Below are positions 1,328 through 55,636 of a stretch of 64,000 nucleotides of DNA, in pieces (within the stretch, counting starts at the first letter, position 1; every line of letters starts with the position of its first letter). Both the position numbers and the translations under genes were made by a program. The stretch is from the IMG/VR virus record IMGVR_UViG_3300045988_183236, positions 35,677 to 99,676 of that record. The stretch is one strand, 5' to 3'. The stretch is from a virus. The notes below the pieces were generated by a model. That model made no database searches, had not been told where the DNA came from, and was given only the letters and a program-made list of their open reading frames with translations.

Positions 1328-1356
1328 ATTTTATGAGACTCGCACATTTGTGCAAC
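1328..1356 (-). promoter_or_regulatory. TGTGCGA-class promoter
   Basis: RC TTGCAC-aaa-TGTGCGAGT-ctca-TAAAAT. Confidence 0.5.
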
Positions 1357-1420
1357 AAAACTAAAAAACAAAAAAAGCGGCCGCTCCAAAAGGAACGACC
1401 GCAAAGATACGAGTCAGATA

Positions 1421-1906
1421 TTATTCATGGGAATCAGCTTTCCTGAAATCAGAAAGTTGATTCTCAGTGGAACACTGCACGAAAGGAATTCCCTTGCGCG
1501 GATTCACAAAAACGTCTGTGGTAGCAAACGCATTGCCAAAACTCATGTCACAGAAGACGACGTGAGAACTTTCGTCACCAGATGCACGGGGTGCAAAGCT
1601 GGTACATGCAAACCAATCCAATTCATCCTGCCCCTGTTCATCATAAAGATAAATGACGGGAGCCGGAATGTTGGGCGTCGGCATAGCCAGTGAGCCAACC
1701 TGCATTTCATTGACACAGAGGTCAATGGGCGGGTTCCCGTTCTGATAATCCCATTTGGGGTATGACTGAGCCCTGATGGTGGTGTCGCCATCATCTACCT
1801 CGACGCCAAGAGCAGCGATATCGAATGGAATACCGAGCTTTTCCTTGATTTCTTCCGGGGTGAAAGTTAGGGGCTTACCGTGTTCGCCTTGGATGTAGAG
1901 TCTCAT
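1421..1906 (-). CDS. hypothetical protein
   Basis: 161 aa ORF. Confidence 0.45.
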   Translation of the reverse strand: MRLYIQGEHGKPLTFTPEEIKEKLGIPFDIAALGVEVDDGDTTIRAQSYPKWDYQNGNPPIDLCVNEMQVGSLAMPTPNIPAPVIYLYDEQGQDELDWFACTSFAPRASGDESSHVVFCDMSFGNAFATTDVFVNPRKGIPFVQCSTENQLSDFRKADSHE

Positions 1907-1909
1907 GGC

Positions 1910-2482
1910 TTACTTTTCCTCCTTTTTCTTGTCGGCGTTCAGAATCTTTTCCAGAACGTCGTTATAAAAATCGTCAAGGAACAGACCGGTTTCTTCATCC
2001 GCTTCCGGAGCAGTGAAAACACCGTCTCCTTCAGCTGAATCCTGTACAGCGTCGAAGACACCGATTGTGCCCCAAAGCTCATCGGCCAGATGGTCATAGC
2101 CGAGGTCCTTTACTTTTGCCGAGAGGTCAATCAGCAGCATTTTCTGCCGAAAGAACTTGTTCATATCCAGGCCAATGTAGGGTTTTGCTGCGGTATTGCT
2201 TTTCTGAGACTTTACTTTGAAAATACCCCAGTCAAAATTGCTGTCTGCGCCGTACATATACCCGGATGCGAGGCAGAAGCCTTCAGCAGCACTGTCCTCA
2301 ACGTTGATACCGACTTCATAATCGCTTCCGGAATCTTCATCCAGGTTAATCGCAGAGCCTGTTGCCTTTTCGTACTCTGCCTCAACGTCAGTTTTCATGG
2401 CTGCCAGTAGAGCGTTGAAATCGGTATTCTGGGAAAGCAAGTTCATGCTTTCGCCTTCCTGGTTTTTAATGAGAATGTACAT
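1910..2482 (-). CDS. hypothetical acidic protein
   Basis: 190 aa ORF, D/E-rich. Confidence 0.45.
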   Translation of the reverse strand: MYILIKNQEGESMNLLSQNTDFNALLAAMKTDVEAEYEKATGSAINLDEDSGSDYEVGINVEDSAAEGFCLASGYMYGADSNFDWGIFKVKSQKSNTAAKPYIGLDMNKFFRQKMLLIDLSAKVKDLGYDHLADELWGTIGVFDAVQDSAEGDGVFTAPEADEETGLFLDDFYNDVLEKILNADKKKEEK

Positions 2483-2501
2483 AGTATTTACCTCCTAACA
2501 A

Positions 2502-2783
2502 TCAAATCATGCTATCAGACAATTTGTCGATAGCTGCCGTGATGGCTTCGTTTTCCATCTGAGTAATACGCTCAAACAGATGAGACCAGTCGATGGCATC
2601 ATAGACACGCTTGACAAACGCATCATAGGTGCCACCGGCCTTCATCATTTCAATTTCAGACTCATAGCAGCCGGGCTCCTCAAGTATGAACTTGATATCG
2701 TCGGTTGGGTTGATTTGTATTGCTGCTTCGTACTCATTCATTTTGATTATTTCCTTTCTTTTATACGCAAAAAGGCGAACCAC
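2502..2783 (-). CDS. hypothetical protein
   Basis: 93 aa ORF followed by terminator 2765-2800 region and preceded by promoter 2872-2899. Confidence 0.45.
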   Translation of the reverse strand: MVRLFAYKRKEIIKMNEYEAAIQINPTDDIKFILEEPGCYESEIEMMKAGGTYDAFVKRVYDAIDWSHLFERITQMENEAITAAIDKLSDSMI

Positions 2784-2800
2784 CCAAATGGGAAGTTCGC
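2765..2800 (-). terminator. rho-independent terminator with CCCAUUUGGGUG loop
   Basis: RC GGCGAAC-uucccauuugggug-GUUCGCC + UUUUUGCG. Confidence 0.55.
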
Positions 2801-2871
2801 CTAAAGCGCATTGTTAAGTGTGCGAAGGGCAGGGTGCCTTTTCGATAACTGTTATCTATCGTACATTTTTG

Positions 2872-2899
2872 ATTATAGGCCGTTCGCATAAATCTGCAA
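2872..2899 (-). promoter_or_regulatory. TGCGAAC-class promoter
   Basis: RC TTGCAG-att-TATGCGAAC-ggcc-TATAAT. Confidence 0.5.
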
Positions 2900-2937: not shown

Positions 2938-2938
2938 A

Positions 2939-5361: not shown

Positions 5362-5942
5362 TACAATTTCTCCCTGATAGAACGCAGACAGCTCAGGATT
5401 TTTGCATACAAACGGTAACGATTTTCGCCGCTCGGTACAAAGTCACCAAGCTTTTTGGAAATGAGAAGTTTATCAAATACCTCCATAATATCAAAGACGG
5501 TGAACAGCTTGTATTGTGCATTTATATGATTCACACGGAACTCGACATCTTCGACAAGATGCCAATATTCCATGCCATACAACATCGCGCCGCTTTCGTT
5601 TGCTTTTCGGTCTTGCTCCTCGTCTGCATCGTCACACACAATATAGACACCGTTTTCGTCGAGATAGTTTTCGAAGACGTCGCAGATATCGGAGGCAATA
5701 GAACGGATATCGGAATTTGCCTTCACCTCAGGTTCATGCTGGACGGCTTCAACTTTGTACTCGATACTGTCGTGACGAAGTGACTCTTCGATACCATCAA
5801 AAACGATGTCCGCGTAGTCTTTATCATCCCGACACGCTTCGAAAATGTTTTTGACGGATTCGATTGCCTCTTTGGAATCGGAGCTTCCCTCAACAGAGAA
5901 CTCCAAAGGAACCAAGGCAACAACTTTGTATTTATTTTTCAT
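5361..5942 (-). CDS. hypothetical acidic protein
   Basis: 193 aa ORF. Confidence 0.45.
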   Translation of the reverse strand: MKNKYKVVALVPLEFSVEGSSDSKEAIESVKNIFEACRDDKDYADIVFDGIEESLRHDSIEYKVEAVQHEPEVKANSDIRSIASDICDVFENYLDENGVYIVCDDADEEQDRKANESGAMLYGMEYWHLVEDVEFRVNHINAQYKLFTVFDIMEVFDKLLISKKLGDFVPSGENRYRLYAKILSCLRSIREKL

Positions 5943-5954
5943 GGTTTTTTCTCC

Positions 5955-6125
5955 TTAATTTAACAGGATGCCGCAGCATTTGTTCAAGGCAAGTACGCTT
6001 GCAGCGAGAACAGCAACCTTCTCAAAGGTAATGCTCTCCGCAATTGCACAGACGCTCATAACAATGAGCAGAACAGCTGCCACAGCAGATACTATTACTA
6101 TCTGACTCTTGATGCCGGTTTTCAT
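5955..6125 (-). CDS. small hydrophobic peptide (56 aa), possible membrane protein
   Basis: Not in ORF track (<60 aa); ATG at 6125 with AGAGAAAAAG upstream; MKTGIKSQIVIVSAVAAVLLIVMSVCAIAESITFEKVAVLAASVLALNKCCGILLN. Confidence 0.3.
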   Translation of the reverse strand: MKTGIKSQIVIVSAVAAVLLIVMSVCAIAESITFEKVAVLAASVLALNKCCGILLN

Positions 6126-6152
6126 GAGCTTTTTCTCTTTCTGTTTATGCCC

Positions 6153-6488
6153 TTATCGGAGCATATCAATGATTTTTCCAACCAACTCATCATTGGTCAC
6201 GAACTGATTACGTCCTTTTGCACCGAGCGATACAGAGGAGTAATCTTTCATACTGGCGGCATAGCGAACCAGGTTCTTGTCAGACAAGGGCTGATAGCAA
6301 CTCTTTTCAGTGCTGACGTAAACGCACTTATTGTTGAGAACGTTCTGAATGTGGCCAGAGCAGCCAACACGCTTACCGTTGATGATGATGTTGTGTAGGT
6401 TATGGGTTAGCATAAGGTCTTTGCTTTCGGTTTCTTTTACCTTTAACTGGTTCAAGAGTTTTCGGGGCAGATAAACGGTTGTTTTCAT
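6153..6488 (-). CDS. hypothetical protein
   Basis: 111 aa ORF. Confidence 0.45.
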   Translation of the reverse strand: MKTTVYLPRKLLNQLKVKETESKDLMLTHNLHNIIINGKRVGCSGHIQNVLNNKCVYVSTEKSCYQPLSDKNLVRYAASMKDYSSVSLGAKGRNQFVTNDELVGKIIDMLR

Positions 6489-6505
6489 TGTGATTTTCTC
6501 CTAAT

Positions 6506-7300
6506 TCAAATGAAGTATTTGTAAGCGGCAGTTAAGCGTTTGCGGTACAGGTCTAACGTGGTCAGCCCTCCTGCATAGACTTTGCGGGAAGAGATTATCA
6601 CGTTGGTTCCTGCTTCCATATGGGAGAAGAACATCGAAAGGCAATCTTCCAGGCTGTCGCTTGTAGTGAGAGTTTCGTACACCGGATATGAGTATTTGGC
6701 GGCCTTGCTGTATGTGCTATTGAGCTCATACACGAAGAACATCACCTGTCCCGTAACGGTGTTGGGGTCATAGCCATTGCCATAACACCAGTTGAAAAGG
6801 TCTGTCTTTCGGCTATAAGTCCATTGCAGGAGTCCATAGCCGCCATCCGAAGGGTTTTCGGCCGAGGCTTTAAGGCCGCTTTCCATCGACATGCAGCCCA
6901 TCACTGCGGCAGTACCGGCCTTGGAAAGACCCACATCCCGCAATGCTGTGTAGATGGCGTACTCATTGTCAGAAAGGTTCTGAGGAATCGTGTTCGTCAC
7001 AGGTTCTTCTGCAGGTTCCACCGCAGTCTCTGCCGTCTCTACAGAGGGCTCAGATTCAGGCTCCGTCTCAGTCGTTTCCGGTTCAGGTACAGGCAGTACC
7101 GGCGCGAAAGGCGGCTGAGCGTTGAGCTCCCGAAGATGGACCTCCAACGGCGTGACATACTCGATATCGGAATCGTTAGCTGTCTTTACCGGCGTAGCAT
7201 ACGCAGGCGTCGAGAAAAAGCAGGCTATGCAGCCGATAATGGTGATAACGCTGAGCATGAAAGCGATGGTTCCGGCATAGAATTTCAATTTGTCGTTCAT
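6506..7300 (-). CDS. membrane-anchored peptidoglycan hydrolase-like protein (phage-tail-type lysozyme fold)
   Basis: Likely start MNDKLKF at 7300 (AAGGAG RBS); TM segment, Pro/Glu/Thr-rich linker, then ...DGGYGLLQW... motif characteristic of phage-tail lysozyme / CwlT-like hydrolases. Confidence 0.5.
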   Translation of the reverse strand: MNDKLKFYAGTIAFMLSVITIIGCIACFFSTPAYATPVKTANDSDIEYVTPLEVHLRELNAQPPFAPVLPVPEPETTETEPESEPSVETAETAVEPAEEPVTNTIPQNLSDNEYAIYTALRDVGLSKAGTAAVMGCMSMESGLKASAENPSDGGYGLLQWTYSRKTDLFNWCYGNGYDPNTVTGQVMFFVYELNSTYSKAAKYSYPVYETLTTSDSLEDCLSMFFSHMEAGTNVIISSRKVYAGGLTTLDLYRKRLTAAYKYFI

Positions 7301-7382
7301 TGTGATTACTCCTTTAAATAAAGTTCCCGCCGACAATAACTGTCTGGCGGGATGTGATAGATGTTCGGTTGTTGGAAAAACT

Positions 7383-7580
7383 TCATGCTTCACGAACTAC
7401 GATGGCGGTAAATCCGCTGTTGGCAAGATACCGATACGCTGCATCATAGGCGTCGCTGAGCGTTGGGGCTTTAACATACCCGATAAAATCGAAGCAGATA
7501 ACCATGCCGGAAAAACCTGGGTTACCGGCATAGATGGCGAAGCGGGTGTTTTTTGGAGTAAAATGTTTGGAAATAGACAT
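7383..7580 (-). CDS. hypothetical small protein
   Basis: 65 aa ORF. Confidence 0.35.
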   Translation of the reverse strand: MSISKHFTPKNTRFAIYAGNPGFSGMVICFDFIGYVKAPTLSDAYDAAYRYLANSGFTAIVVREA

Positions 7581-7794
7581 AGCGGACCTCCTTATCAGTC
7601 GCTGTTAAAATGGGTGGATGACGGCTTCCTGAAAACAAAAAAGGCAGGCCCATCATGAAGATGAGTCTGCCTTGAATGAGAACAGAATTATGAATTGTAC
7701 GAGCACGCGGTGTGCAAAGTAGATGTTATCTGTCGTACAACTTTAATACTATGGAATTCGCAAGGATGTGCAAGAGTTTTTGAGGTTCTTCTTT

Positions 7795-8334
7795 TTAGGC
7801 TTCATTGAGCCATTTCTGAGTGATATCCTTGATTTGGTTCTGGAATTTCGGGTCCGGCAATGCTTTTCTTTCTGTCCAAATTGAATTTCGGACGATTGGG
7901 TAATCGTACACGACGCCGTCAACGATATAGGGCCAAAGAACAACTTCACCACCCACAAGCCAAAGTTTCTGGATTTTGACGGGTTTCTCGTATCTTGTGA
8001 GCCAGCATTCACTGGTCACGACAGAATCCGCCACATATTTCTGTGTTTCTTCCTCGGTCAAGAGATTCGGGTCTTCGTCCTTGATGTTGTACATTCGGAC
8101 AATGAACGGTAACGGCATGTCCTTGGAGTATTTTTTGTTCCGACGCAGCTCAGCGAGCAGGAATTTTGAGACAAAATGCGCAATGCCGATGCTGGTCAGG
8201 CAGTCGTCAAGGGTATGCCCAAGACAAATTCTTGGGATTTCCTGGTCCTCCCCTTTCATCCGATTCGTTGGTATCTGCGGAACGACATCGTCCGGCAGGC
8301 ATCCGGTGTCTGCCATGATATGATAAAGAATCAT
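7795..8334 (-). CDS. hypothetical protein
   Basis: 179 aa ORF. Confidence 0.45.
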   Translation of the reverse strand: MILYHIMADTGCLPDDVVPQIPTNRMKGEDQEIPRICLGHTLDDCLTSIGIAHFVSKFLLAELRRNKKYSKDMPLPFIVRMYNIKDEDPNLLTEEETQKYVADSVVTSECWLTRYEKPVKIQKLWLVGGEVVLWPYIVDGVVYDYPIVRNSIWTERKALPDPKFQNQIKDITQKWLNEA

Positions 8335-10429: not shown

Positions 10430-10469
10430 CCTTTCTGAAATATTTTTGTTTCTAATCAATACATACAAA

Positions 10470-10508
10470 AAAAGAAGCAGGCCCTCAAAAGAGAGTCTGC
10501 TTACTTGT
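10470..10508 (-). terminator. rho-independent terminator
   Basis: RC: AAGCAGACUCUCUUUUGAGGGCCUGCUU followed by CUUUUUUUG. Confidence 0.55.
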
Positions 10509-10573
10509 GCATGACAGATTGTTAATTTAATGTTCAATTAGGAGGTAAGTGATGGTATCTGTTATGCAATTAT

Positions 10574-10729: not shown

Positions 10730-11992
10730 TCACTTCCTTTCGATTAAATAGTTTGTTGCAGGCTCTAATAGTCGCAGTTTTTTAAATGAAATGCTATTCG
10801 TAATGGTTGTACCATCGAATTTTCTTAAAGCGAAATATCCCGATGACCTGCGTCCTGAAATAAAACATTCCTGCTCGTTATAGAGCACCTTGTCCCAGAG
10901 GCGAAATCCTTTAACGATATAGGGCGCTTGATTTGCTTTTCGAATTCCACCTTTCAAGATTTTCGCTTTATGGATTTGCCGATTGTGGTGTCGAATTGCC
11001 TTCGTGCGGTAACAAACACTGCAAGGTTTAGCTAGTGGATGCTTGCTAATACAACGGGCATCGTTAACATGGCTTTTCTTGATGTCGTTTTGTTCACGTA
11101 ACAACTTGGTTATATAGCCATATGTGTTTTGTACTGGAATATTAAGTTCGTTGCGTAGGCGTGTCAGTAGTGTGTTACGCATGATACCCATAAAAGCCGC
11201 ATCGCGAAGCGTTTTACCACGTTTTTTGCCGTCAAGTGTTATCTTCCCTTTATGGAGGTTGTTGTGGCAAGTGGTACACAAAGTGATAAGGTTGCTTGGT
11301 GCATTACCGCCCACCTTACGGCTTTCAAAGTGATGTACATGCAGCTTGACGGTTTTCTTTGCGGTGGTATGAGCACCACAGCATTGGCATGTATAGTTAT
11401 CACGCTTCAAAACATACTGGCGAACATTGTATTCGTCGTACATCTCACCGAGTTGGTAGTCGGTTCCTACCGGCAGAGGCTTTCCGGCAAGCATTGCTTT
11501 TAAGCGTTGCGTGTCAAACTCTGCAGTTTCTACTCTTACAAGAGTGATAGGCAAAATTCGACAGATGCGCTTGATAACAGTAATGTGCTCTTGGATTTTT
11601 ACTTCTACCGAAGGTGCAAGCCAACCCTTATGTTTGCTGTGTACACGGTTATTGAATCTTGGCGCACGGTAACGAGTTTTGCGATTTCGCCTTGAACGGC
11701 GGTTCTGTCTGCGCGTAGATAGCAATTCTACTACATCGTTGCGAGGAGTGAACTCCTCACTGTAGAGTTCGCGCTTCTCTGTAGATGCAGACAAGCCAAC
11801 ATGCTTGCTGCCCGCATCTACACCAAGAGTGATAGGCTGTTTGTATCCCGCACTTCCATGCAGGAGTTTGATGGTGAACGGCGTGCGTTTTACAACGCAA
11901 GCTTTTTGCTGTTTCAACAAGATGCGAGCCTTTCCGGGTGAGCAAGGCATCAAGGGCTCGCCGCGCTTGTTAAGTACATACGCATATTGCAT
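10730..11992 (-). CDS. iscB: IscB RNA-guided endonuclease (PLMP, RuvC-I, HNH, RuvC-III)
   Basis: N-terminal ...RGEPLMPCSPGKARILL (PLMP domain), LGVDAGSKHVG (RuvC-I), CQCCGAHTTAKKTVKLHVHHFESRKVGGNAPSNLITLCTTCHNNLH (HNH), HVNDARCISK (RuvC-III); 420 aa. Confidence 0.8.
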   Translation of the reverse strand: MQYAYVLNKRGEPLMPCSPGKARILLKQQKACVVKRTPFTIKLLHGSAGYKQPITLGVDAGSKHVGLSASTEKRELYSEEFTPRNDVVELLSTRRQNRRSRRNRKTRYRAPRFNNRVHSKHKGWLAPSVEVKIQEHITVIKRICRILPITLVRVETAEFDTQRLKAMLAGKPLPVGTDYQLGEMYDEYNVRQYVLKRDNYTCQCCGAHTTAKKTVKLHVHHFESRKVGGNAPSNLITLCTTCHNNLHKGKITLDGKKRGKTLRDAAFMGIMRNTLLTRLRNELNIPVQNTYGYITKLLREQNDIKKSHVNDARCISKHPLAKPCSVCYRTKAIRHHNRQIHKAKILKGGIRKANQAPYIVKGFRLWDKVLYNEQECFISGRRSSGYFALRKFDGTTITNSISFKKLRLLEPATNYLIERK

Positions 11993-12294
11993 GATGCTAT
12001 GCTCCTTTCGATAAAATTGCAGCTAAAAGGAAGCTGCTCACTCCTCCGAAGAGGGTAAAAATCCTTCCCCAAGGTCATAAGCGGTTTGATACAACCACAC
12101 CTGTCGGCTTTGCCTCAGCTTTACGTGATGTGTTGTCTTAGAGCGTGCAGTTAGGATTAACGCCGCACGGTAACTATCTATTCGCTTATAACGGAGTGCT
12201 CGAAGCACTTAGGGTAGTCAACATATCCTTTCGGACACTTCTAAAGCGTAGACTCGCTGATGCAAGCCCGCGACTTTAGTCGTGGGTTATTGAC
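11993..12294 (-). ncRNA. omega-RNA scaffold of the IscB element
   Basis: Non-coding ~300 nt immediately 5' of iscB start on same strand, the IscB-specific arrangement; conserved copy at 9886-10163; guide would be RC of the flank beyond 12295. Confidence 0.55.
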
Positions 12295-13582: not shown

Positions 13583-13610
13583 ATTATACCGCGATTCGCA
13601 ATTTCTCACA
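13583..13610 (-). promoter_or_regulatory. TTGCGAAT-class promoter
   Basis: RC TTGTGA-gaaa-TTGCGAAT-cgcg-GTATAAT. Confidence 0.45.
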
Positions 13611-13839
13611 ACGGAAAGCGTTAAATGGTAACAGTTTATACACATTCTTTTGCAATTGACATTCTCCCCCGCCTAAGCCCAACGGCTATAGACGGGGTAC
13701 TCTGCCTTCAAATTTCATAGATGAATCAGTGGCAAATGAAGGCACTTTTGCTTTCTGGACAATTTTGTTGCTTTGCTGTATGATTAAAGTACAACAATTA
13801 GGGCAATACAAAAATCGATAACGACGAGGTACTGATAAG

Positions 13840-14211
13840 ATGGACGCGACAATGCAGACGGTTCTCCGGCTCCATGAGCAAGGTATACCTAGAAGAACCA
13901 TTGCCAAACGTGCAGGCATCTCATTGCAGAAAGTGCGCAAAATACTGATTACAGCCGGGGCATGGTCAGATGAAACATCAGAAAAAATCGGGAAGCTGCG
14001 TGCGAACGGTATGTCAGTTCCTGAAATCGCAGAAGAATTGGGTGTAAAAACCAATACTGTTTGGAGCTATTTGCCATACAGCAAAGGCATGTATAATCAA
14101 GAATATCCGACCATTAACGCCATTCGAGTCCGAAATTCGAAGCGAAAAGCAAAAGAAAAAGCCCTCACCTGCACGGATACCGCACAGAATGAGGGCAGTG
14201 GCGCTTGCTGA
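13840..14211 (+). CDS. tandem-HTH DNA-binding protein (two resolvase/sigma-r4-like HTH units)
   Basis: IPRRTIAKRAGISLQKVRKIL and MSVPEIAEELGVKTNTVWSYL repeats; same repeat family as 23696-25827 and 47511-48050. Confidence 0.55.
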   Translation: MDATMQTVLRLHEQGIPRRTIAKRAGISLQKVRKILITAGAWSDETSEKIGKLRANGMSVPEIAEELGVKTNTVWSYLPYSKGMYNQEYPTINAIRVRNSKRKAKEKALTCTDTAQNEGSGAC

Positions 14212-14286
14212 AGGATTCGAACCTTCGGACAGTCTCCCATCGTCGGTTTTCTGGACCGATTTCATCAACCACTCGAACAAGCAAGC
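14199..14286 (-). tRNA. tRNA, Ser-type (long variable arm) with non-canonical anticodon loop CCAGAAA (C33; anticodon AGA?)
   Basis: RC gives GCTTGCT acceptor / AGCAAGC-G-CCA, T-arm GAAGG-TTCGAAT-CCTTC, anticodon arm TCGGT-CCAGAAA-ACCGA; 88 nt. Confidence 0.55.
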
Positions 14287-14289
14287 AGA

Positions 14290-14379
14290 TGGCGCAGAGG
14301 GTGAGATTCGAACTCACATGCCGCGATTTCCGCGACGGCAGCTTAGCAAGCTGCTGCCCTACCGTTAGGCGACCTCTGC
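14290..14379 (-). tRNA. tRNA-Ser(GCT)
   Basis: GCAGAGG...GCAGC-TTGCTAA-GCTGC...long variable arm...GTGAG-TTCGAAT-CTCAC-CCTCTGC-G-CCA; 90 nt. Confidence 0.7.
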
Positions 14380-14410
14380 ATAATGCACCTTTTTGACATA
14401 GGTGCTTGTA

Positions 14411-14484
14411 TGACCCCTGGCAGACTCGAACTGCCGACTCCACATTGAGAGTGTGGTGACTTAGGCCAACTTGTCGAAGGGGCC
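14411..14484 (-). tRNA. tRNA-Glu(CTC) (CCA not encoded)
   Basis: Acceptor GGCCCCT/AGGGGTC, anticodon arm CCACA-CTCTCAA-TGTGG, T-arm GGCAG-TTCGAGT-CTGCC. Confidence 0.55.
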
Positions 14485-14487
14485 TTA

Positions 14488-14574
14488 TGGTGTGCCGGGC
14501 TGGATTCGAACCAGCGAACCGAAACGGAGCGGTTTTACAGACCGCCTGCTTTAACCTCTTGCATACCGACACAT
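14488..14574 (-). tRNA. tRNA-Tyr(GTA)
   Basis: GTGTCGG acceptor, GCGGT-CTGTAAA-ACCGC, long variable arm, TTCGAAT T-loop, CCA. Confidence 0.7.
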
Positions 14575-14575
14575 A

Positions 14576-14651
14576 TGGTGCTCCCGGCTGGAATCGAACC
14601 AGCGACACGCGGTTCTTCAGACCGCTGCTCTACCAACTGAGCTACAGAAGC
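14576..14651 (-). tRNA. tRNA-Phe(GAA)
   Basis: TAGCTCAGTTGGTAGAGC D-arm, GCGGT-CTGAAGA-ACCGC, TTCGATT T-loop, CCA. Confidence 0.7.
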
Positions 14652-14652
14652 A

Positions 14653-14732
14653 TGGTGACCCGTGTGGGTTTCGAACCCACAATAACCTCCGCCTTGAAAG
14701 GGCGGCAACTCTACCAATTCGTCCAACGGGCC
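14653..14732 (-). tRNA. tRNA-Glu(TTC) (80 nt, long D/variable region)
   Basis: GGCCCGT acceptor, CCGCC-CTTTCAA-GGCGG, GTGGG-TTCGAAA-CCCAC, CCA. Confidence 0.55.
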
Positions 14733-14761
14733 ATATATAGCCGCAATCCTGCGGCGAGGGT

Positions 14762-14983
14762 TTATGCGATGACAAGGATGTCATCTATCTTGGTATCCAG
14801 CATTGCTGCTAATATCACAAGGTTATCGATGGTGGGAAGCGCTGTTCCGGCTTGCCATTTAGCAACCGCCTGCGGAGACACACCGAGCATGTCTGCCACA
14901 TCCTTCACCTTGATGCCTGCTGCCTTTCGCAGGGCCTTGATATTGGCACCTGTCTGCTGGATATCAATAGTAGGAACGTTCAT
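14762..14983 (-). CDS. XRE-family HTH transcriptional regulator
   Basis: ALRKAAGIKVKDVADMLGVSPQAVAKWQAGTALPTIDNLVILAAML = Cro/C1-type HTH; embedded in tRNA array. Confidence 0.65.
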   Translation of the reverse strand: MNVPTIDIQQTGANIKALRKAAGIKVKDVADMLGVSPQAVAKWQAGTALPTIDNLVILAAMLDTKIDDILVIA

Positions 14984-15240
14984 TTTTCTTGCTGCCTTTC
15001 TGTATTGCAGGCAACAAAAAAGCTGCCTGCCGAAATCTCGACAAGCAGCTATGACATGCAGTTATCGCTTAGAAGACGCACCGCATCTGTACATGGTCTG
15101 TTTTTGCCTGTCGAGGAGTATGAGAAATAAAACTGCGTTCAAAGGACATGAACTCAGAATATTCGTAACTATACTCATACGGCATGACATTAACAGTGTT
15201 GCACAGCATTTTGGGGTATCTCCTTTCGTTTCGTTCTGAT

Positions 15241-15272
15241 ATTATTATACCATGTTTTCGCAAGTTCGCAAT
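15241..15272 (-). promoter_or_regulatory. promoter, TGCGAA-class variant (TTGCGA-N16-TATAAT)
   Basis: RC ...TTGCGAACTTGCGAAAACATGGTATAAT upstream of XRE gene. Confidence 0.35.
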
Positions 15273-15316
15273 CAACTTGTGGTTTAGTTTTTTGGTCTGT
15301 ATACTCTCCAAAACAA

Positions 15317-15350
15317 AAAGCCGCCTCTTATGTGAGGACGGCTTTTCTTA
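15317..15350. terminator. bidirectional rho-independent terminator at end of tRNA block
   Basis: AGCCGCCTC-TTATGT-GAGGACGGCT flanked by A-run and T-run. Confidence 0.55.
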
Positions 15351-15353
15351 TTG

Positions 15354-15429
15354 TGGCAGGGGTAACACGACTCGAACATGCAACAAGCGGTTTTGGAGAC
15401 CGCTGCTCTACCACTTGAGCTACACCCCT
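15354..15429 (-). tRNA. tRNA-Trp(CCA)
   Basis: AGGGGTG-TA-GCTCAAGTGGTAGAGC-A-GCGGT-CTCCAAA-ACCGC...TTCGAGT...G-CCA. Confidence 0.7.
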
Positions 15430-15437
15430 ATATAGAT

Positions 15438-15511: not shown

Positions 15512-15514
15512 ATA

Positions 15515-15590: not shown

Positions 15591-15619
15591 ATAAATGGCA
15601 GTTGTTGTACTGCCGGACA

Positions 15620-41965: not shown

Positions 41966-42068
41966 TAAAAAAGAAAACGAGAACGCCGTCGGCAACGGAG
42001 TCTTCGCAAAAGATGGTTCTTTTTGATTGCGGTTTTAATTATATGGAACCCGCAATGCATTGCAAGTA

Positions 42069-43649: not shown

Positions 43650-43737
43650 CATAGTGCATTTCCTTTCTGCAAACAAAAAGTCCCGCACAAACAACTCATG
43701 CGGGACAACGATAAGATATATTTTTGGTTTATATTTT

Positions 43738-43765
43738 TCATTGTACGCAATTCGCACAGATTGAC
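43738..43765 (-). promoter_or_regulatory. TGTGCGAAT-class promoter
   Basis: RC TTGTCA-atc-TGTGCGAAT-tgcg-TACAAT. Confidence 0.55.
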
Positions 43766-43824
43766 AATAGAAAATTACAAAAAAATTCCCGCATGAGCGT
43801 CGCTGCTCACACGGGAAAAATTTC

Positions 43825-44433: not shown

Positions 44434-44628
44434 AATGTGTATCTCCCTTTTGGATTTCTTATTATATGGATATTGCACTTTTTTGCAAGGGCTTTTAACC
44501 CAAGCACCTTTTTTGGCTGTTTGTCAATACCCGCAGAATATCAAAGTGTTGTTAAAGTTCAGGTGAAAAAACGTTCTGGAACCAACAAACCCGGGACTCC
44601 CGCCTCTTGCATTTGTTTACCGCCTTTT

Positions 44629-45354: not shown

Positions 45355-46242
45355 TCAGTAAATAAACTTGCATTCCCGGCGTTCCCGGCCATTGCCGCAC
45401 CAGTAATGCCGCCAGCGGGGAGTTTTGCCTTCCCCATTCTTTTTGTATTCTTTGGCCGCATTCTCACCAACGGTATACGGTTTAATGTTGATGCGTTGTG
45501 CTTTTCCCTGGAATACAAAAACCGGGCGGTCACGCTTCTTGGAAGTTTCCAAGCGGACATCAGGGTTCTTACTGGCAAGATAGTAGGCACACAGGATTGC
45601 CAGGCGAACATAAGGTGTGCCGCCGTCAAAGACCGAAGGAACTGCTTCCATCACAGCCGGTACGCTGATACCATTTACCTGCCGCTGCCCGGCTGCCTTT
45701 TCCAGGTATTCTTTCGTGCTCCGAGTTGCTTCCGTCAAACTCTGGTTTTCTTTGGCCCAGGCAGGCAGAGTCAGGAACGTGAAATCATCATGGCTGCCTT
45801 TGGCCGGGCCGACAAGAACGATGCCGAAAGCAGTGGTCTTCTCTTTCTCTTCGAATTCCACATGCACGAACATACCGTTGTAGTCGTAGCTGTCATACAC
45901 CGGGATAAAGAAATCACGAATCGGAAGCCGCTGCAGGATATCCTGATGAATCGCCATGTCATCCGTATCCATAAGAATTTTCTGGAACTCGTAGTCAAAA
46001 TCATAGACCGTCTTCGTCTGGTTCCAGCAGCCGATGGTGAAGCAGGGGAAAATCTGTGCAGCAAGGACACGCTCGAAACCCGGCGTGTTCATTTTCTGCG
46101 CTGCCGTCACACAGCAAAGCGTTGAAGATTTGTTGTACTCTTGCAGAGTCTTCCCACACGGGTCACTGAACCCAAAATGGTTACGGGTCTGTTTGGTAAC
46201 GGCATTCGCCGTCAATGCGATTCTCAGCTGTTCCTTGGTCAT
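45355..46242 (-). CDS. hypothetical protein (intact paralog of IS-disrupted gene at 10597-12636)
   Basis: 295 aa; homology to 12296-12636 fragment. Confidence 0.5.
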   Translation of the reverse strand: MTKEQLRIALTANAVTKQTRNHFGFSDPCGKTLQEYNKSSTLCCVTAAQKMNTPGFERVLAAQIFPCFTIGCWNQTKTVYDFDYEFQKILMDTDDMAIHQDILQRLPIRDFFIPVYDSYDYNGMFVHVEFEEKEKTTAFGIVLVGPAKGSHDDFTFLTLPAWAKENQSLTEATRSTKEYLEKAAGQRQVNGISVPAVMEAVPSVFDGGTPYVRLAILCAYYLASKNPDVRLETSKKRDRPVFVFQGKAQRINIKPYTVGENAAKEYKKNGEGKTPRWRHYWCGNGRERRECKFIY

Positions 46243-46871: not shown

Positions 46872-46899
46872 ATTGTCTGCGATTCGCACAGTTTCGCAA
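46872..46899 (-). promoter_or_regulatory. TGTGCGAAT-class promoter
   Basis: RC TTGCGA-aac-TGTGCGAAT-cgca-GACAAT. Confidence 0.5.
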
Positions 46900-46932: not shown

Positions 46933-47571
46933 TTACAACCCCTTGATGAAGTTCGGGTCATAGTGAGACAGGACATCCTCATTCAGGCAGTACTCGCACT
47001 TAATAGTTGTCGCGTCATTCGTATACACGCCGCGGTTTGCGTAGTATATCCCATCGATATAAATGGCGAACACGACGGACGGCATCAGTGCCTTTTCATT
47101 CACTGCGTAAATCAGGTATTCATCCAGATTATCCTTGACCACCGCGCTCTTATTGATTTGGGCGATTTGCTGTCCGCAAAGGAATACAGGGCAGCATACT
47201 CCTTCTTTTCCAAAACCAATTTTGTAGCTCTGGTATTCCTCGCCATACAGCTGCATGGTGATAGAATTGTATCCTTGGAGGAATCCGGTTTTTGTATGGA
47301 TGACGGAAATCTCGCCTACCGTGCGGTTGTTCTCACAGATAGCAAAAGGGTGTCTCAGAATATCTTTCGTGTTGATGCCGCGCATGTACGCCCTTGCGTC
47401 ACCAGCTGGCATGTATTGCAGCAGGAACTTGGAATCATTCAGCCGGATGCCATAACCTTGCCGCAGCACTTTCGGAATATAGTGTGCCTGCCCGATAACG
47501 GCCTTGCCTTTCACGATATCGAAGGTGAACTCATATCCTTTCGATTTGGTTTGCTTAACAATCCATTGCAA
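46933..47571 (-). CDS. hypothetical protein
   Basis: 212 aa. Confidence 0.45.
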   Translation of the reverse strand: MQWIVKQTKSKGYEFTFDIVKGKAVIGQAHYIPKVLRQGYGIRLNDSKFLLQYMPAGDARAYMRGINTKDILRHPFAICENNRTVGEISVIHTKTGFLQGYNSITMQLYGEEYQSYKIGFGKEGVCCPVFLCGQQIAQINKSAVVKDNLDEYLIYAVNEKALMPSVVFAIYIDGIYYANRGVYTNDATTIKCEYCLNEDVLSHYDPNFIKGL

Positions 47572-47999
47572 AACTCCATCGCCTCCTTTTGCCTTCTCAC
47601 TCGCTGGATAACCTTGTAAATACCAGGAACCGAGAGCTGATACTTTTCGGATAGTTTCTGCACCGGCACGCCACTCTCGTATTCTCGAAAGATATTCTCG
47701 TTGCGCGGTCTTTGTCTAATTTTGATGCGCTCGTTTCTGCGGTTTTCAGTCAGGCCCGCATCGTTGGCAACCATGCCGCAATATCCTTCTGTCACGTTGA
47801 ATTTCGCAATCATTTCCTTGAGAGGGACACTGTTCTTGTATGCCGCAAGGATTTCAGCTTTTCTGGCATCCTCAACCTGTGCCAGCTGAATTCTGGCCTC
47901 CTGTTTCGCGTCGTCTAACGCTCGATAGCATGTACGGACGCTCAACCTGTATTTTGCGGCAAGCTCCTCAATGGAATAGCCGTTGCCGTAGTCTTTCAT
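47511..47999 (-). CDS. tandem HTH-repeat DNA-binding protein (3 HTH units); N-terminus uncertain
   Basis: YSIEELAAKYRLSVRTCYRAL, VPLKEMIAKFNVTEGYCGMV, VPVQKLSEKYQLSVPGIYKVI; annotated ATG at 48110 lies inside promoter 48083-48110, so start is further downstream (ATG 47999 or non-ATG near 48050). Confidence 0.5.
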   Translation of the reverse strand: MKDYGNGYSIEELAAKYRLSVRTCYRALDDAKQEARIQLAQVEDARKAEILAAYKNSVPLKEMIAKFNVTEGYCGMVANDAGLTENRRNERIKIRQRPRNENIFREYESGVPVQKLSEKYQLSVPGIYKVIQRVRRQKEAMEFCNGLLSKPNRKDMSSPSIS

Positions 48000-48082
48000 G
48001 ATATTGCAATTTCGCTCAATCAACTTTTTGCTTGCAAATTTTGAGATGGTACTCAGCTCCTTTGCTTTACGCTTTATTTCTG

Positions 48083-48110
48083 ATTGTCTGCAATTCGCAC
48101 AAATGGGCAA
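48083..48110 (-). promoter_or_regulatory. TGTGCGAAT-class promoter
   Basis: RC TTGCCC-att-TGTGCGAAT-tgca-GACAAT. Confidence 0.5.
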
Positions 48111-50670: not shown

Positions 50671-50698
50671 ATTGTATGCAATTTGCACGGCTGTGCAA
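50671..50698 (-). promoter_or_regulatory. TGTGCAAAT-class promoter
   Basis: RC TTGCAC-agc-CGTGCAAAT-tgca-TACAAT. Confidence 0.5.
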
Positions 50699-50812: not shown

Positions 50813-50936
50813 GGATGGTTATGCTTGCGCTGCTTCTGTTTTTTCTGCCATTGTACAAGGCGGCGACCATATCGACCGCCTCATCCATCGAGTGGCACTG
50901 GTAGCTGACGGCCGTGCCGCTTCCGACCAGCATGTT

Positions 50937-51000
50937 CCCGCTGCTCGCCGCGTGGAGGCTGTCTTTTGGAGCAGCTGCGCGGACAAAACCGCGCTTTTGA
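50937..51000. other. conserved hairpin motif, instance 3 (core GCCGCGTGGAGGC) plus GC hairpin/T-run
   Basis: GCTGCTC-GCCGCGTGGAGGCtgtcttttg-GAGCAGC then GCGCGG-acaaaa-CCGCGC-TTTTGAG; lies just 3' of vWA gene on opposite strand. Confidence 0.4.
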
Positions 51001-53543: not shown

Positions 53544-53564
53544 CTTTTGTTTTTAATTATCTTC

Positions 53565-53592
53565 AATTCGCACAATTCAGCAACAAAGCCTT
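53565..53592 (-). promoter_or_regulatory. TGTGCGAAT-class promoter
   Basis: RC TTGCTG-aat-TGTGCGAAT-tgaa-GATAAT. Confidence 0.5.
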
Positions 53593-53704
53593 AACATGCA
53601 AAAAAGACAGTCACCCAAATTGGATGGCTACCATGAACTTTTCGTTTGCGTCACAACAGAAAAAAAGGATGGCTCTTTCGAGTCACCCTCTTTTCATGTT
53701 GTCT

Positions 53705-55348
53705 TTAATCTTTGGCCTTTTTGTCTTTCATGATAGCCTTCTCTTCTTCGGTCACATCCGGTCGAAAATGAGTGACTTCCTCACCGTTGAGATTCTTCTC
53801 ATGAATCAGATAGCCGCCTTCTACGCGTTCCATTGCCTTGGCACCTCCTTTCTCTTTGTTATTCTCAGGCTGTTCACATTGAGTCATAATGTTGATGTTG
53901 CGGTCTGTCTTTGCCTGGATGCTGTTGGCACGGACAATTTCGCCCATGTCAATGCCGGTCGCTTCTTTCACCGTCTGCATGGTTTGAGCCATCAGGATAG
54001 GAACGTTCCCGGAAACGCCGGATACGCCGGAGGCATCACCGCCAATGATAGAAACCTTATCAATGCTGGACAAAGGCTGAGCCACGCTCTTGGCAATGTC
54101 AGGAAGAACCTTGATGAGCATTTCAGCCACAGCCGCATCGTTATACTGCTTATATGCCTCTGCTTTCTGTTTCATGGCTTCCGCTTCAGCCAAGCCTTTC
54201 TGACGAATCGCTTCAGCTTCTGCCTTACCGACAAGCTCAATGCCTTCTGCTTCCTGCTGCTTAGAGAACTTCTGTGCCTCAGCTGCACGTTCCGCCTCAT
54301 ATTTCTTGGCTTCTGCCTCTTTCTGGCGGCGGTACAGGTCAGCATCTGCCTGTTTGCGGACTTCCGCATCCAGTTTGCGTTGCTGGACCTCGGCTTCCTG
54401 TGCGGCAAGGTCTACCATTTTCTTCTGCTTGGCGATTTCAGCATCCGCTTCCGCTTCTTTGATTTCTTTGGCGCGGAGATTCATCTGAATCTGACCGGCA
54501 GCATCTGCGTCAGCCGCAGCTTTATCAGCTTCAGCTTTCAGCTTTGCCTTGGCGAGCTGCAATTCATTGTTGCGTTTTGCAATCGCAGTCTGCGCTTCAA
54601 CTTCCTTGGCATTTGCAGCCATCTCAGCATCGGCCTTCGCGCAGGCTACATCACGGGCAGCCTGAGCACGGGCAATTTCAGCCTGTTTCTTTACGAGCTC
54701 TTCCTGTTCGATGCCGATAGCTTCGATAACGCCGTGATTGTGGCCCTGAACATCCACTGCATCCCTGATGTCCTGGACATTAAAAGTCACGACCTCAAGT
54801 CCCATCTTAGCAAGGTCGGGGCGAGCATTCTCGATAACGCTCACAGCCATCTGCTTGCGGTTCGTCAGAATTTGGTCAACGGTCATATCGGAGACAATCT
54901 CTCGCAAATTGCCCTGCAGAACGTCATTGACTTTGTCATTGATGCCCTGCTCGTTCATGCCGAGAAAGTTCGAGATGGCTGCCTGCTGGCGGGACATGAT
55001 GTACGCCTTGGCGTCTTTCAGACCGGATGCCTTCACTTCTTCATCCAGAACGGTAGAGTTTTCGCTGTAGACTTGAATCGTGACAACAGAGTCAATCCAG
55101 AGACTTACGCCGTTCTTCGTCTTAACACCTGTTTCAGGAGTCTTGACATCGATTTTCAAAAGGCGCATATTTAGTCGGTCAGCCCGTTGAAGAACGGGCA
55201 GAACAAATGTACCCTTTCCGCAAACCACTTTAGGCTTAGACAGGCCAAAGCCAGTTACAACGATAGCCTCCGTGGGCGGAGCTTTCTTGTAGCAGAGAAA
55301 TCCAAAGAGAATAATCAGGGCTGCTACAATTCCAATCACGTATACCAT
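53705..55348 (-). CDS. flotillin-like SPFH/Band-7 domain protein
   Basis: N-terminal TM + SPFH fold motifs (VVTGFGLSKPKVV...GTFVLPVLQR...) followed by long Ala/Glu/Gln-rich coiled coil typical of FloA/YqiK. Confidence 0.7.
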   Translation of the reverse strand: MVYVIGIVAALIILFGFLCYKKAPPTEAIVVTGFGLSKPKVVCGKGTFVLPVLQRADRLNMRLLKIDVKTPETGVKTKNGVSLWIDSVVTIQVYSENSTVLDEEVKASGLKDAKAYIMSRQQAAISNFLGMNEQGINDKVNDVLQGNLREIVSDMTVDQILTNRKQMAVSVIENARPDLAKMGLEVVTFNVQDIRDAVDVQGHNHGVIEAIGIEQEELVKKQAEIARAQAARDVACAKADAEMAANAKEVEAQTAIAKRNNELQLAKAKLKAEADKAAADADAAGQIQMNLRAKEIKEAEADAEIAKQKKMVDLAAQEAEVQQRKLDAEVRKQADADLYRRQKEAEAKKYEAERAAEAQKFSKQQEAEGIELVGKAEAEAIRQKGLAEAEAMKQKAEAYKQYNDAAVAEMLIKVLPDIAKSVAQPLSSIDKVSIIGGDASGVSGVSGNVPILMAQTMQTVKEATGIDMGEIVRANSIQAKTDRNINIMTQCEQPENNKEKGGAKAMERVEGGYLIHEKNLNGEEVTHFRPDVTEEEKAIMKDKKAKD

Positions 55349-55442
55349 AATTTTTATTTCTCCACATTCAATTTTTTAGCTGCTAAGATTCTCATCCCTA
55401 CTGCATCGGTATCGCCCCATCTCACAATCGCTCTGTCTTTAA

Positions 55443-55470
55443 TTGTCTGCAATTCGCACGATTCCGCAAT
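55443..55470 (-). promoter_or_regulatory. TGTGCGAAT-class promoter
   Basis: RC TTGCGG-aat-CGTGCGAAT-tgca-GACAAT. Confidence 0.5.
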
Positions 55471-55608
55471 AAACAAAACCCACAGGTGAGAGAATGACCT
55501 GTGGGCTTCGAAAAGAGGTAATTATGCGCAAGCAGACACGGCATCGATTCGTGGCGACCAACTACAATCGCGATGAACGTCACTTGCCGTTTCTCTTGTA
55601 CAATTTCT

Positions 55609-55636
55609 ATTTTATGAGGTTCGCACAGCGGCGCAA
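55609..55636 (-). promoter_or_regulatory. TGTGCGAAC-class promoter (no obvious downstream gene)
   Basis: RC TTGCGC-cgc-TGTGCGAAC-ctca-TAAAAT. Confidence 0.35.

Follow-up and report, generated by a model that had tools for sequence, protein, structure and literature searches.

A three-part promoter with a conserved spacer element drives more than half of the genes of a mobile element

Why should a mobile genetic element place the same promoter in front of one gene cassette after another, and why should the spacer of that promoter, the sequence of which is normally free in sigma-A promoters, be held constant? The question is raised by a 64,000-nucleotide stretch of DNA (positions 35,677 to 99,676 of the IMG/VR record IMGVR_UViG_3300045988_183236, filed as a virus), which we refer to as the window and whose first letter is position 1. 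A preliminary description, made from the letters of the window, had noticed a stereotyped promoter class upstream of at least 20 transcription units, pointed to an invariant element within the spacer as its odd part, and proposed a dedicated, element-encoded sigma factor, activator or repressor shared by the whole gene set. A follow-up in the window and its relatives reveals a mobile element that drives more than half of its genes from this one promoter, and the three-part promoter is specific to one mobile-element family. A dedicated shared regulator is the best reading of this arrangement, albeit an unproven one.

When the sites of the preliminary description are aligned on the minus strand, their common unit is 28 nt long and has the consensus TTGCnn-N3-yGTGCGAA-N5-TAvAAT, with 16 nt separating the −35 box from the −10 box; the two boxes and the spacer element had been recognised correctly, and the N4 gap and the (T/G)A(C/T)AAT box given at first are corrected to N5 and TAvAAT. 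The yGTGCGAA element occupies positions −25 to −18; from the TTG of the −35 box to its TGC, further downstream, is a distance of 11 bp, or about one helical turn. The arrangement is rigid and can be written TTG-N8-TGCGA-N6-TAnAAT. The window contains 13 copies of TGTGCGAA, where 3.2 would be expected, and none of 100 shuffles reaches 13. A position weight matrix (PWM) trained on 16 strict instances and applied at a threshold of 12 bits finds 21 sites, compared with 0-2 in shuffled sequence; every one of the 21 lies on the minus (gene) strand, and the plus strand has none. The sites have the hallmarks of sigma-70/sigma-A promoters, namely a TTGnnn −35 box and a TAnnnT −10 box at 16-18 bp on the coding strand upstream of genes, and start codons follow 21-155 nt downstream where they can be assigned.

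The promoter class extends far beyond the window. Related loci were retrieved via their proteins and not via the motif (232 loci, 4.53 Mb), and their gene strand carries 1272 matches (243 unique); neither the opposite strand nor shuffled loci have any. A pattern blind to the spacer sequence (TTG-N3-N16-TAnAAT) has 141 unique gene-strand matches compared with 12 on the other strand, and about 120 of these 141 have TGCGA at −23 to −19. The spacer length is sharply defined, with 141 unique matches at 16 nt and 7, 30 and 8 at 15, 17 and 18 nt, respectively; sigma-A-like sites on the gene strand that are devoid of the element are no commoner than background. The element is tied to both boxes, since 224 unique contexts contain TTG-N8-TGCGA (background 16) and 136 contain TGCGA-N6-TAnAAT (background one). 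If GTGCGAR alone serves as the anchor, all 260 of the 260 excess occurrences are accompanied by TTG and by the A2 and T6 of the −10 box, and all other combinations remain at background level. Departures from this scheme are rare: four clear variants have a 17-nt spacer with an additional base between the element and the −10 box, and a few promoters have TTTTTC in place of the −35 box but retain the other two parts.

Logos were also made from a non-redundant set of 125 copies with a mutual identity below 80% (77 class A and 48 class B promoters, the two classes being defined below). Each position of T-G-C-G-A in the element has 1.7-2.0 bits in these logos, no less than the TTG and the key positions of the −10 box; the spacer element exceeds the −35 box in information, which confirms the preliminary description in its choice of the unusual part. 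Because the adjoining spacer positions carry only 0.1-0.3 bits in the same divergent copies, the conservation of the element points to selection rather than to recent copying. No UP-like conservation upstream of the promoter is apparent in the non-redundant logos.

The boxes themselves deviate from the textbook form. TATAAT is rare as the −10 box (12 of 260), the prevailing forms being TAGAAT, TACAAT and TAAAAT, and in about two-thirds of the generic matches (95 of 141) the fourth base of the −35 box is C and not A. A conserved GCA precedes the −10 box at the place where an extended −10 promoter has TGn. Several known sequences were compared with the motif by eye and discarded: the extended −10 or −16 TRTG motif lies at the wrong position, sigma-54 promoters (GG-N10-GC) have the wrong spacing, the CATACA-T −10 box of sigma-E and sigma-K comes without a matching −35 box, the LexA half-site CGAAC has no partner, and resemblances to promoters of sigma-H and extracytoplasmic function (ECF) sigma factors and to Rex and Fur boxes were likewise rejected. 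The element is also one base off register with the Spo0A box TGNCGAA, and a true TGTCGAA is present in only a few leaders. A full-text search of the literature for the motif strings retrieved nothing but unrelated primer sequences.

What follows the promoter divides the class in two. About 60% of the promoters (class A) have the element and no terminator in the leader. The remaining 40% or so (class B; 74 of 207 unique promoters, with 68 unique leaders) begin their transcripts with a near-invariant box, UGUACGAUAGAUAMCAU, at +1, and continue into a leader of about 105 nt that consists of a three-way junction (about 50 nt), a linker and a terminator. The 5′ strand of the junction, UGUACGAU, includes the −10-like hexamer TACGAT. 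Helix P1 (UGUACGA pairing with UCGUACA) encloses two hairpins, the short P2 (UAGAU..AUCUA) and the variable P3; a conserved linker, AAUUCACAAUU, leads to the GC-rich terminator with its U-tract, and the ribosome-binding site (RBS; AAAGGAG) lies 10-25 nt past the terminator. Overall, a strong intrinsic terminator intervenes between the promoter and the RBS or open reading frame (ORF) at 11 of the 21 promoters in the window and at 89 of the 207 unique promoters; these hairpins fold at −12 to −24 kcal/mol and each is followed by a U-tract. A further terminator lies directly upstream (within 80 nt) of 73 of the 207. The preliminary description had taken per-gene terminators to make each cassette an independently transcribed unit. 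The terminators are indeed there, but simple independence does not hold where one of them stands between a promoter and its own gene: because of this strong terminator ahead of the RBS, class-B cassettes would need antitermination or read-through to be expressed.

The structure of the class-B leader is backed by covariation. Four of the five pairs of P3 covary in a curated alignment and five of five in 98 distinct matches to a covariance model, whereas P1 and P2 do not vary but can pair in 96-98% of cells; the window variants downstream of the promoters at 31167 and 10575 have compensatory changes in P1. The model finds 148 matches in 873 kb of relatives, about 15 of which are lower-scoring antisense duplicates. 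G-U pairs occur on the sense strand, and it is therefore the RNA, and not the opposite DNA strand, that folds. The class-B leader is thus a conserved structured RNA, with a presumed regulatory function. Rfam 15 contains nothing that matches it, whether at gathering scores or with a cut-off of E <= 1. Two simple explanations of the leader can be discarded: a leader peptide (AUG UAC GAU AGA UAA), as most copies begin with UUG or CUG, and a classical riboswitch with an antiterminator helix, as the 5′ half of the terminator has no complementary sequence upstream of it. RNAalifold recovers only the terminator from the full-length leader alignment. The flanks of the leader terminator look complementary and covarying (CGC..GCG, CUGCA..UGCAG and UUCGGC..GCCGAA, for example at 2760-2805 of the window; columns 62-68 against 119-128 of alignment A1), and their pairing in read-through RNA would wrap a longer hairpin, possibly a processing site, around the terminator and its U-tract; this outer helix seems to covary by eye and is not significant in a duplex test (p = 0.056).

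The promoters, leaders and associated genes of the window are as follows, in the direction of transcription; scores in bits are those of the PWM.

55609-55636, minus strand: promoter, 33 bits, with a variant class-B leader; in tandem with, and upstream of, the promoter at 55442
55471-55603, minus strand: variant leader RNA with a 5′ stem, UGUACAAG..CUUGCGCA, followed by a terminator at 55471-55506 (−16.3 kcal/mol); fold z = −4.1
55442-55469, minus strand: class-A promoter, 36 bits, driving a flotillin gene (start codon 55348); terminator directly upstream
53556-53583, minus strand: class-A promoter, 32 bits, driving a gene for 267 amino acids and a VWA gene
50671-50698, minus strand: class-A promoter, 36 bits, with the element variant GTGCAAA, driving a PLD-nuclease cassette
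48083-48110, minus strand: class-A promoter, 38 bits, driving a Mor-like gene with two helix-turn-helix (HTH) repeats (about 47511-48023); a recombination joint of the relative L005 lies inside it
46872-46899, minus strand: class-A promoter, 38 bits, driving a gene for 198 amino acids, an AcrVA2-like gene (45355-46242) and a gene for 235 amino acids
44461-44488, minus strand: promoter, 25 bits, with the element variant GTGCAAT
43740-43767, minus strand: promoter, 36 bits, with terminators upstream (43786-43817) and in the leader (43675-43706); ORF start 43652
42038-42065, minus strand: weak promoter-like site, 18 bits, with a TTGCGGG element; terminator-like hairpin downstream (41967-42007)
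39741-39768, minus strand: class-A promoter, 32 bits, with the initial transcribed sequence AUGUCGAAAGAUAAAG
39217-39244, minus strand: promoter, 24 bits, with a class-B box; its leader terminator (39134-39170) abuts the next promoter
39134-39211, minus strand: variant leader of the preceding promoter; outside the window, leaders also occur in L221, L282, L342, L357 and other loci
39111-39138, minus strand: promoter, 24 bits, the −35 box of which is the T-run of the preceding terminator (TTTTTC); element and −10 box conserved in relatives
38080-38108, minus strand: weak, uncertain variant below the PWM threshold, TTGCAG-N17-GATAAT, with AGCACGA in place of the element
36939-36966, minus strand: promoter, 35 bits; its leader terminator (36875-36916, −23.8 kcal/mol) precedes a UvrD-like gene for 906 amino acids, start 36852
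31167-31194, minus strand: promoter, 27 bits, with the element ATACGAA, driving a Lactamase_B/Apyc1-like gene
31075-31161, minus strand: variant leader of the preceding promoter, with a 5′ stem UGUGAA..UUCACA that shows compensatory changes relative to the canonical stem
29849-29876, minus strand: promoter, 25 bits, with the −35 box TCGACA and a canonical class-B leader
29738-29842, minus strand: this canonical leader, with its three-way junction at 29782-29842 (covariance model 37.7 bits) and terminator at 29738-29774 (−21.9 kcal/mol); ORF start 29711
25802-25829, minus strand: promoter, 35 bits, with a leader terminator (25702-25736), driving the tandem-HTH operon
22736-25689, minus strand: tandem-HTH operon encoding proteins of 175 (25162-25689), 172 (24654-25172) and 317 amino acids (23696-24649) and an AAA protein (22736-23650)
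13583-13611, minus strand: variant promoter with a 17-nt spacer, TTGTGA-N4-TTGCGAA-N6-TATAAT, driving an HTH_3 gene for 73 amino acids
10575-10602, minus strand: promoter, 36 bits, with a variant leader (10467-10569) whose 5′ stem is UGCAU.ACAGAU..AUCUGU.AUGCA
7746-7773, minus strand: promoter, 23 bits, with the element TTGCGAA and the −10 box TAGTAT
7637-7739, minus strand: canonical class-B leader, with its three-way junction at 7684-7739 (69.1 bits) and terminator at 7637-7671
2872-2899, minus strand: promoter, 31 bits, with the element ATGCGAA; terminator directly upstream
2769-2865, minus strand: canonical class-B leader, with its three-way junction at 2807-2865 (29.2 bits) and terminator at 2769-2801 (−18.5 kcal/mol); ORF start 2741
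1328-1355, minus strand: class-A promoter, 35 bits, 21 nt from the start codon at 1306; terminator upstream
near 61437: weak variant below the PWM threshold

Most of the sites originally reported hold up, some with slightly shifted coordinates: those at 1328, 2872, 10574 (now 10575), 25802, 29849, 31167, 36939, 39101 (39111), 39217, 39740 (39741), 43738 (43740), 46872, 48083, 50671, 53565 (53556), 55443 (55442) and 55609. The site reported at 7694 is not a promoter but a TTGCAC-N12-TACAAT sequence within the leader of the true promoter at 7746-7773. The one at 13583 is a genuine variant, those at 38080 and 61437 are weak and fall below threshold, and the list was incomplete in that it missed the promoter at 44461-44488 and, less clearly, the site at 42038-42065.

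What kind of element would distribute one promoter so widely? Exact-protein look-ups place the window in gut-metagenome contigs of 188-232 kb that carry the same promoters on the gene strand, and a pattern scan of IMG/VR matched at least 120 stretches, mostly from contigs of 30-390 kb, many of which show scant DNA alignment to the window and yet have 3-6 promoters each. A walk along these relatives follows the promoter class over at least 120 kb of one strand, past a gene for an NAD-dependent ligase. On the 222-kb contig 3300045988_182459 it begins at the IMS gene (for a Y-family polymerase; about 86 kb) and reaches at least 206 kb, and upstream of IMS the motif nearly vanishes. Throughout this cassette arm of at least 120 kb, which contains anti-defence genes, tRNAs, the ligase and many ORFans, the promoter is found ahead of essentially every transcription unit, and the number of promoters per element is probably 35 or more. 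In the window the anti-defence and accessory genes comprise the AcrVA2-like and Lactamase_B/Apyc1-like genes, a radical SAM gene, flotillin with VWA, the PLD nuclease and the UvrD-like helicase; AcrVA2-like, Apyc1-like and NADAR genes lie downstream of promoters of the class.

Relatives of the window encode a VirD4/TraG coupling protein (PF02534, 3e-48) and a VirB4-like TraG P-loop ATPase (PF19044, 1e-20; 300-2477 and 5644-8313 of locus L387, from IMGVR_UViG_3300045988_182459), 10-19 kb upstream of the IMS gene, which forms the right end of the window, and on the same strand. The best matches of the coupling protein in PLSDB, at about 30% identity, are to conjugative plasmids of 235-275 kb from C. 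botulinum and C. sporogenes. Capsid, terminase and other phage structural genes were not seen in the annotated stretches. On the strength of the VirD4 and VirB4 genes of its relatives and this lack of capsid and terminase genes, the element, listed as viral in IMG/VR, is most likely a giant (about 220 kb), plasmid-like conjugative element from gut Clostridia. A jumbo phage, suggested by a tRNA array, the IMG/VR listing and PHROG matches, was dropped on the same grounds; the single PHROG 'terminase' match is to the VirB4-like P-loop ATPase. When 20 kb of the window was compared by megablast with phage and plasmid collections, no match resulted, and blastn of one promoter and leader against the plasmid collection gave none either.

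The motif appears to be specific to this element. Across 185,579 species genomes the leader pattern occurs in only two metagenome-assembled genomes, both labelled 'Clostridiales', one of which has a 224-kb contig resembling the element itself, and the conjugation region and the opposite-strand genes of the element are served by other promoters and lack the motif.

Taken together, the two boxes and the distance between them point to a sigma-70-family holoenzyme, by default that of the host sigma-A, and the host polymerase would initiate about 7 nt after the −10 box. Since element-less sites on the gene strand are at background level, and the other promoters of the same mobile element do without the spacer element, a dedicated reader appears more plausible than an optional booster. 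We therefore favour, at about an even chance, a sigma-A-type promoter whose third part docks an element-encoded regulator that couples the whole arm, with a second gate of the antitermination type on many cassettes. The docked DNA-binding factor would switch the entire arm together. As to the sign of this control, we lean towards silencing in the resident state and a burst of expression after entry into a new cell, similar to kor-type or 'establishment' regulons; the main alternative would be a positive factor docked on the polymerase. At some 40% of the promoters the leader and its terminator would add the second gate, through antitermination or attenuated read-through.

Candidates for the factor are encoded within the regulon. 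The tandem-HTH proteins singled out at the outset do exist: they are paralogues of the Mor/HTH_23 type with 2, 3, 3, 6 and 2 repeats (25162-25689, 24654-25172, 23696-24649 and about 47511-48023, minus strand; 13840-14211, plus strand), and those with 2, 3, 3 and 6 Mor-type repeats are transcribed from promoters of the class and are the candidate factors. The operon of the protein with six repeats continues with the AAA ATPase gene (22736-23650). The Mor-like protein with two repeats cannot alone be essential, because some strains have the promoters but not its gene. Further candidates are the HTH_3 protein of 73 amino acids, the protein of 123 amino acids with two HTH repeats, and small ORFans from class-A cassettes. 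A PDB sequence search with the HTH proteins was uninformative, and no ribbon-helix-helix (RHH) protein was found among those scanned.

Several considerations weigh against this interpretation. Known global repressors of plasmids, such as Reg576, act at operators that are palindromic or repeated, unlike a single asymmetric 7-mer; the operators of KorA and KorB, too, are palindromic or repeated. Repression in particular sits less well with the promoter itself, as TTGC instead of TTGA, a 16-nt spacer and the lack of a TG extension fit a positive factor or direct contact with the polymerase better, and the few promoters without a −35 box (TTTTTC) retain the element and the −10 box. The transcription starts, the timing and the read-through of terminators are inferred, and the docking factor is putative. 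The conjugative identity, moreover, is drawn from the relatives and not from the window's own contig; no relaxase gene was found in the 20 kb upstream of IMS, and no oriT was found. Rigid phasing is no argument against a plain repressor, given that within a spacer of fixed length the element cannot shift by a single indel.

The closest precedents appear to be plasmid regulons in which one plasmid-encoded protein governs many promoters. In IncP-1 plasmids KorA, KorB and TrbA each act as one plasmid regulator at many promoters, through an operator that occupies a set place with respect to the −35 or −10 box. The Kor operators are palindromic, 12-13 bp long and found at 7-12 sites, whereas the element described here is an asymmetric spacer 7-mer in several dozen copies. 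In p576, EGeRS2 combines a sigma-A promoter with an operator for the plasmid-encoded Reg576 and leads to establishment genes being expressed transiently upon transfer (Val-Calvo et al. 2021, PMC8708921). The likeness to p576 and pLS20 lies in several operons of a conjugative element, including anti-defence genes, that each follow the same conserved regulatory sequence (PMC8708921), and conjugation genes (in the relatives), a shared promoter element and downstream anti-defence genes are all present here; in p576 the regulator gene is inside the regulon, and some promoters have a second site just past the transcription start. The differences are considerable. There are four such promoters in p576 and probably 35 or more, spread across 120 kb or more, in the present element; Reg has as its operator a dual heptamer, TTATCCCnnTTATCCC, flanking the promoter, in contrast with a single asymmetric 7-mer at a fixed position in the spacer; and there is no sequence similarity, nor any RHH repressor among the scanned proteins. 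EGeRS1 of pLS20, a conserved structured upstream region that blocks transcription from upstream, is 400-600 bp long and promoterless, unlike the leader of about 105 nt with its own promoter and terminator.

A related and more far-reaching idea, which we put forward tentatively as a possibility short of probable, is that GTGCGAA and the class-B leader may form a new, multi-copy control system in which one element-encoded factor, or a signal sensed by the RNA, loads at the promoter or the nascent leader and makes the polymerase resistant to terminators, so that dozens of anti-defence and accessory cassettes are opened at once; alternatively, the leaders may act as a high-copy decoy or sensor RNA. 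Structured RNAs transcribed ahead of terminators are known from conAn2/ConAn1 of pLS20 (PMC8191782), HK022 put, EAR and lambda nut, and conAn is common among conjugative elements from Gram-positive bacteria, including clostridial plasmids (PMC8191782). By analogy conAn would be the nearest RNA-based precedent for the second gate, although conAn2 is about 280 nt long and occurs once per element, at the start of the conjugation operon, and the leader is multi-copy and confined to the accessory arm.

Antiterminator loading of the Q/AlpA type, the main rival, which we nevertheless regard as rather unlikely, would assign the antitermination to a protein: GTGCGAA, a conserved asymmetric 7-mer in the spacer, would bind an element-encoded antiterminator that is loaded onto a polymerase paused at a −10-like sequence in the initial transcribed region, and the loaded polymerase would then ignore the terminators in the leader and between cassettes. 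Class-B units have all three cis parts that define such cassettes (PMC9388147, PMC9371919). As in lambda PR', phage 21, phage 82 and alpB of P. aeruginosa, a −10-like hexamer of the NACGAT type lies in the initial transcribed region, with TACGAT (at about +3 to +8) in 33 and TAMCAT in 27 of 38 non-redundant leaders, and the alpB promoter has CACGAT at −1 to +5 (PMC9371919); a strong intrinsic terminator precedes the regulated genes in either case. The known Q families are unrelated in sequence (PMC9388147), and hence a missing homologue is no objection. Set against this, class A has the element, but −10-like hexamers are not enriched there (30 promoters compared with 25 in the control window) and the leader terminator is absent, so that most promoters carry the element without a pause box or a terminator. 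TACGAT doubles as the 5′ strand of P1 and changes together with its partner at 31167 and 10575, and the likeness to a −10 box may therefore be a by-product. The initial transcript is here a conserved folded RNA, the structured 5′ end of which seems ill suited to threading through a Q-type nozzle, and the sole Q-family match is below threshold (PF06530, E = 0.036). In addition, the known cases are single cassettes per genome in Proteobacteria and not dozens per element in Clostridia.

If no dedicated factor existed, region 3 of the host sigma factor or the beta-prime zipper might read the element directly, in the manner of an extended −10 or 'Z-element', and render the promoters unusually competitive. 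The rigid phasing to both boxes agrees with direct contact, as does the location of the element, which by its geometry and established knowledge of the holoenzyme is displaced by about one helical turn from the −35 contact and faces the polymerase; the element could also offset the sub-consensus −35 box and spacer length, and the rare promoters without a −35 box retain it. The same host polymerase, however, serves the opposite-strand and conjugation-region promoters of the mobile element, which lack the spacer element, and sigma-A-like sites without it are at background level on the gene strand. We know of no sigma-A for which a near-invariant 7-bp element at −24 to −18 is known, and consider this explanation unlikely.

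Still less probable is an element-encoded sigma-70-family factor whose own specificity covers the spacer element. Large mobile elements often encode sigma factors, and three obligatory, strictly spaced parts, TTGC in place of TTGACA and the scarcity of TATAAT would suit a factor of this sort. Yet no Sigma70_r2 domain was detected in the window, its 10-kb flanks or selected larger ORFs of the other fetched stretches, a negative that extends neither to a further 80 kb or so, at the least, of the element nor to the bulk of the relatives' small ORFs; the Sigma70_r4 matches stem from generic HTH repeats; and a newly arrived element would first need another promoter to express the sigma factor.

A side role of the modules emerged when the window was compared with 11 strain variants for breaks in homology. 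Most breaks lie within about 190 nt of a promoter and two fall inside the 28-mer. At 12240-12258 of L005, the promoter of window 48083 is fused to the region downstream of a 46872-type promoter; one of the breaks within the 28-mer reflects the deletion of the Mor-like cassette via recombination between two promoters, and at about 4015-4058 of L010 homology breaks within the promoter. These comparisons indicate that terminator-promoter modules are joints for the exchange of cassettes between strains. From strain to strain the cargo of the same inter-promoter slots changes (window against L001-L006 and L010-L012; 17901-21473 of L005 is an example) and includes type I-C cas genes (Cas5d, Csd1, Cas7), IS605 TnpB, Eco57I, T5orf172/ResIII, NADAR, RlaP and HipA_C; the slots resemble a cassette 'marketplace' of defence and anti-defence genes.

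Such mosaicism invites the notion that the spacer element has no function and that its constancy merely reflects the copying or homogenisation of cassettes, as in the PeSLs of T4-type phages, in which terminator-promoter modules flank small variable ORFs in hyperplastic regions and serve as recombination joints for cassette swaps (Arbiol 2010; Comeau 2014, PMC4122927). A terminator directly ahead of 73 of the 207 promoters and the joints inside the modules of L005 and L010 are shared with the PeSLs. PeSL promoters, however, have a free 17-nt spacer (PMC4122927), no leader RNA and no terminator downstream of the promoter, and they belong to T4-like myoviruses; the element analysed here has an invariant spacer element and relatives with VirD4 and VirB4, is not a T4-like phage and is probably no phage at all. 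Homogenisation would also have to spare TGCGA and randomise the adjoining positions in 125 divergent copies, which makes this explanation highly improbable. A Frpo-type single-stranded-DNA promoter, active when the transferred strand folds back, has in its favour that all copies lie on one strand of a seemingly conjugative element with anti-defence genes, but is excluded to all intents and purposes because fold-back complementarity is lacking: no inverted promoter copy exists within 250 nt on either side, duplex energies (−18.9 kcal/mol) and the longest inverted matches equal those of shuffled flanks (−18.3 kcal/mol for the duplexes), and the motif is an ordinary duplex −35/−10 promoter.

Other features of the window deserve mention. 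Large plus-strand genes without the motif lie at 55928-58880 and 39983-41869 and encode proteins of 465 and 514 (no Pfam match) and 628 amino acids; the last has one HTH_3 domain and a sub-threshold match to Rpb1 domain 1, and the pair of 465 and 514 amino acids is kept at the start of the promoter-rich arm in six of six strain variants (L001-L006). A HEARO or omega-RNA (RF02033, 84.6 bits; 12055-12294, minus strand) adjoins an IscB-like ORF of 420 amino acids with RRXRR and HNH domains (10730-11992, minus strand), an IscB/OMEGA insertion the presence of which varies between strains (L008 against L007). An array of 18 tRNAs occupies 14199-20554 (minus strand), with one abnormal anticodon call at 19055-19130, and a ribozyme similar to that of hepatitis delta virus (RF02682, 50 bits) abuts the tRNA-Thr, a layout resembling reports from gut 'phage' contigs. 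With three weaker, sub-threshold copies, the ribozyme positions are 20559-20639, 18763-18830, 20339-20410 and 50904-50975 (minus strand).

The finding combines known kinds of organisation (plasmid global regulons, PeSL-like cassettes and promoter-embedded antitermination sites), with a real chance of a new distributed antitermination or sensing system, and it points to an element-wide, factor-dependent control of genes of a kind that has not yet been described. If the spacer element is read by a dedicated factor, a mobile element would place more than half of its genome under one switch by means of a third promoter element; should the multi-copy antitermination reading be true, it would amount to a distributed Q-, nut- or put-like switch without a described counterpart. 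The leader is a new and abundant structured RNA ahead of anti-defence genes, and offers a way to study the timing of counter-defence in giant plasmids. Finally, the motif provides a precise marker for the annotation of transcription units in a widespread family of uncultured gut elements that are filed in IMG/VR as viruses and, since it marks the boundaries of cassettes, allows the exchange of accessory genes between strains to be tracked.

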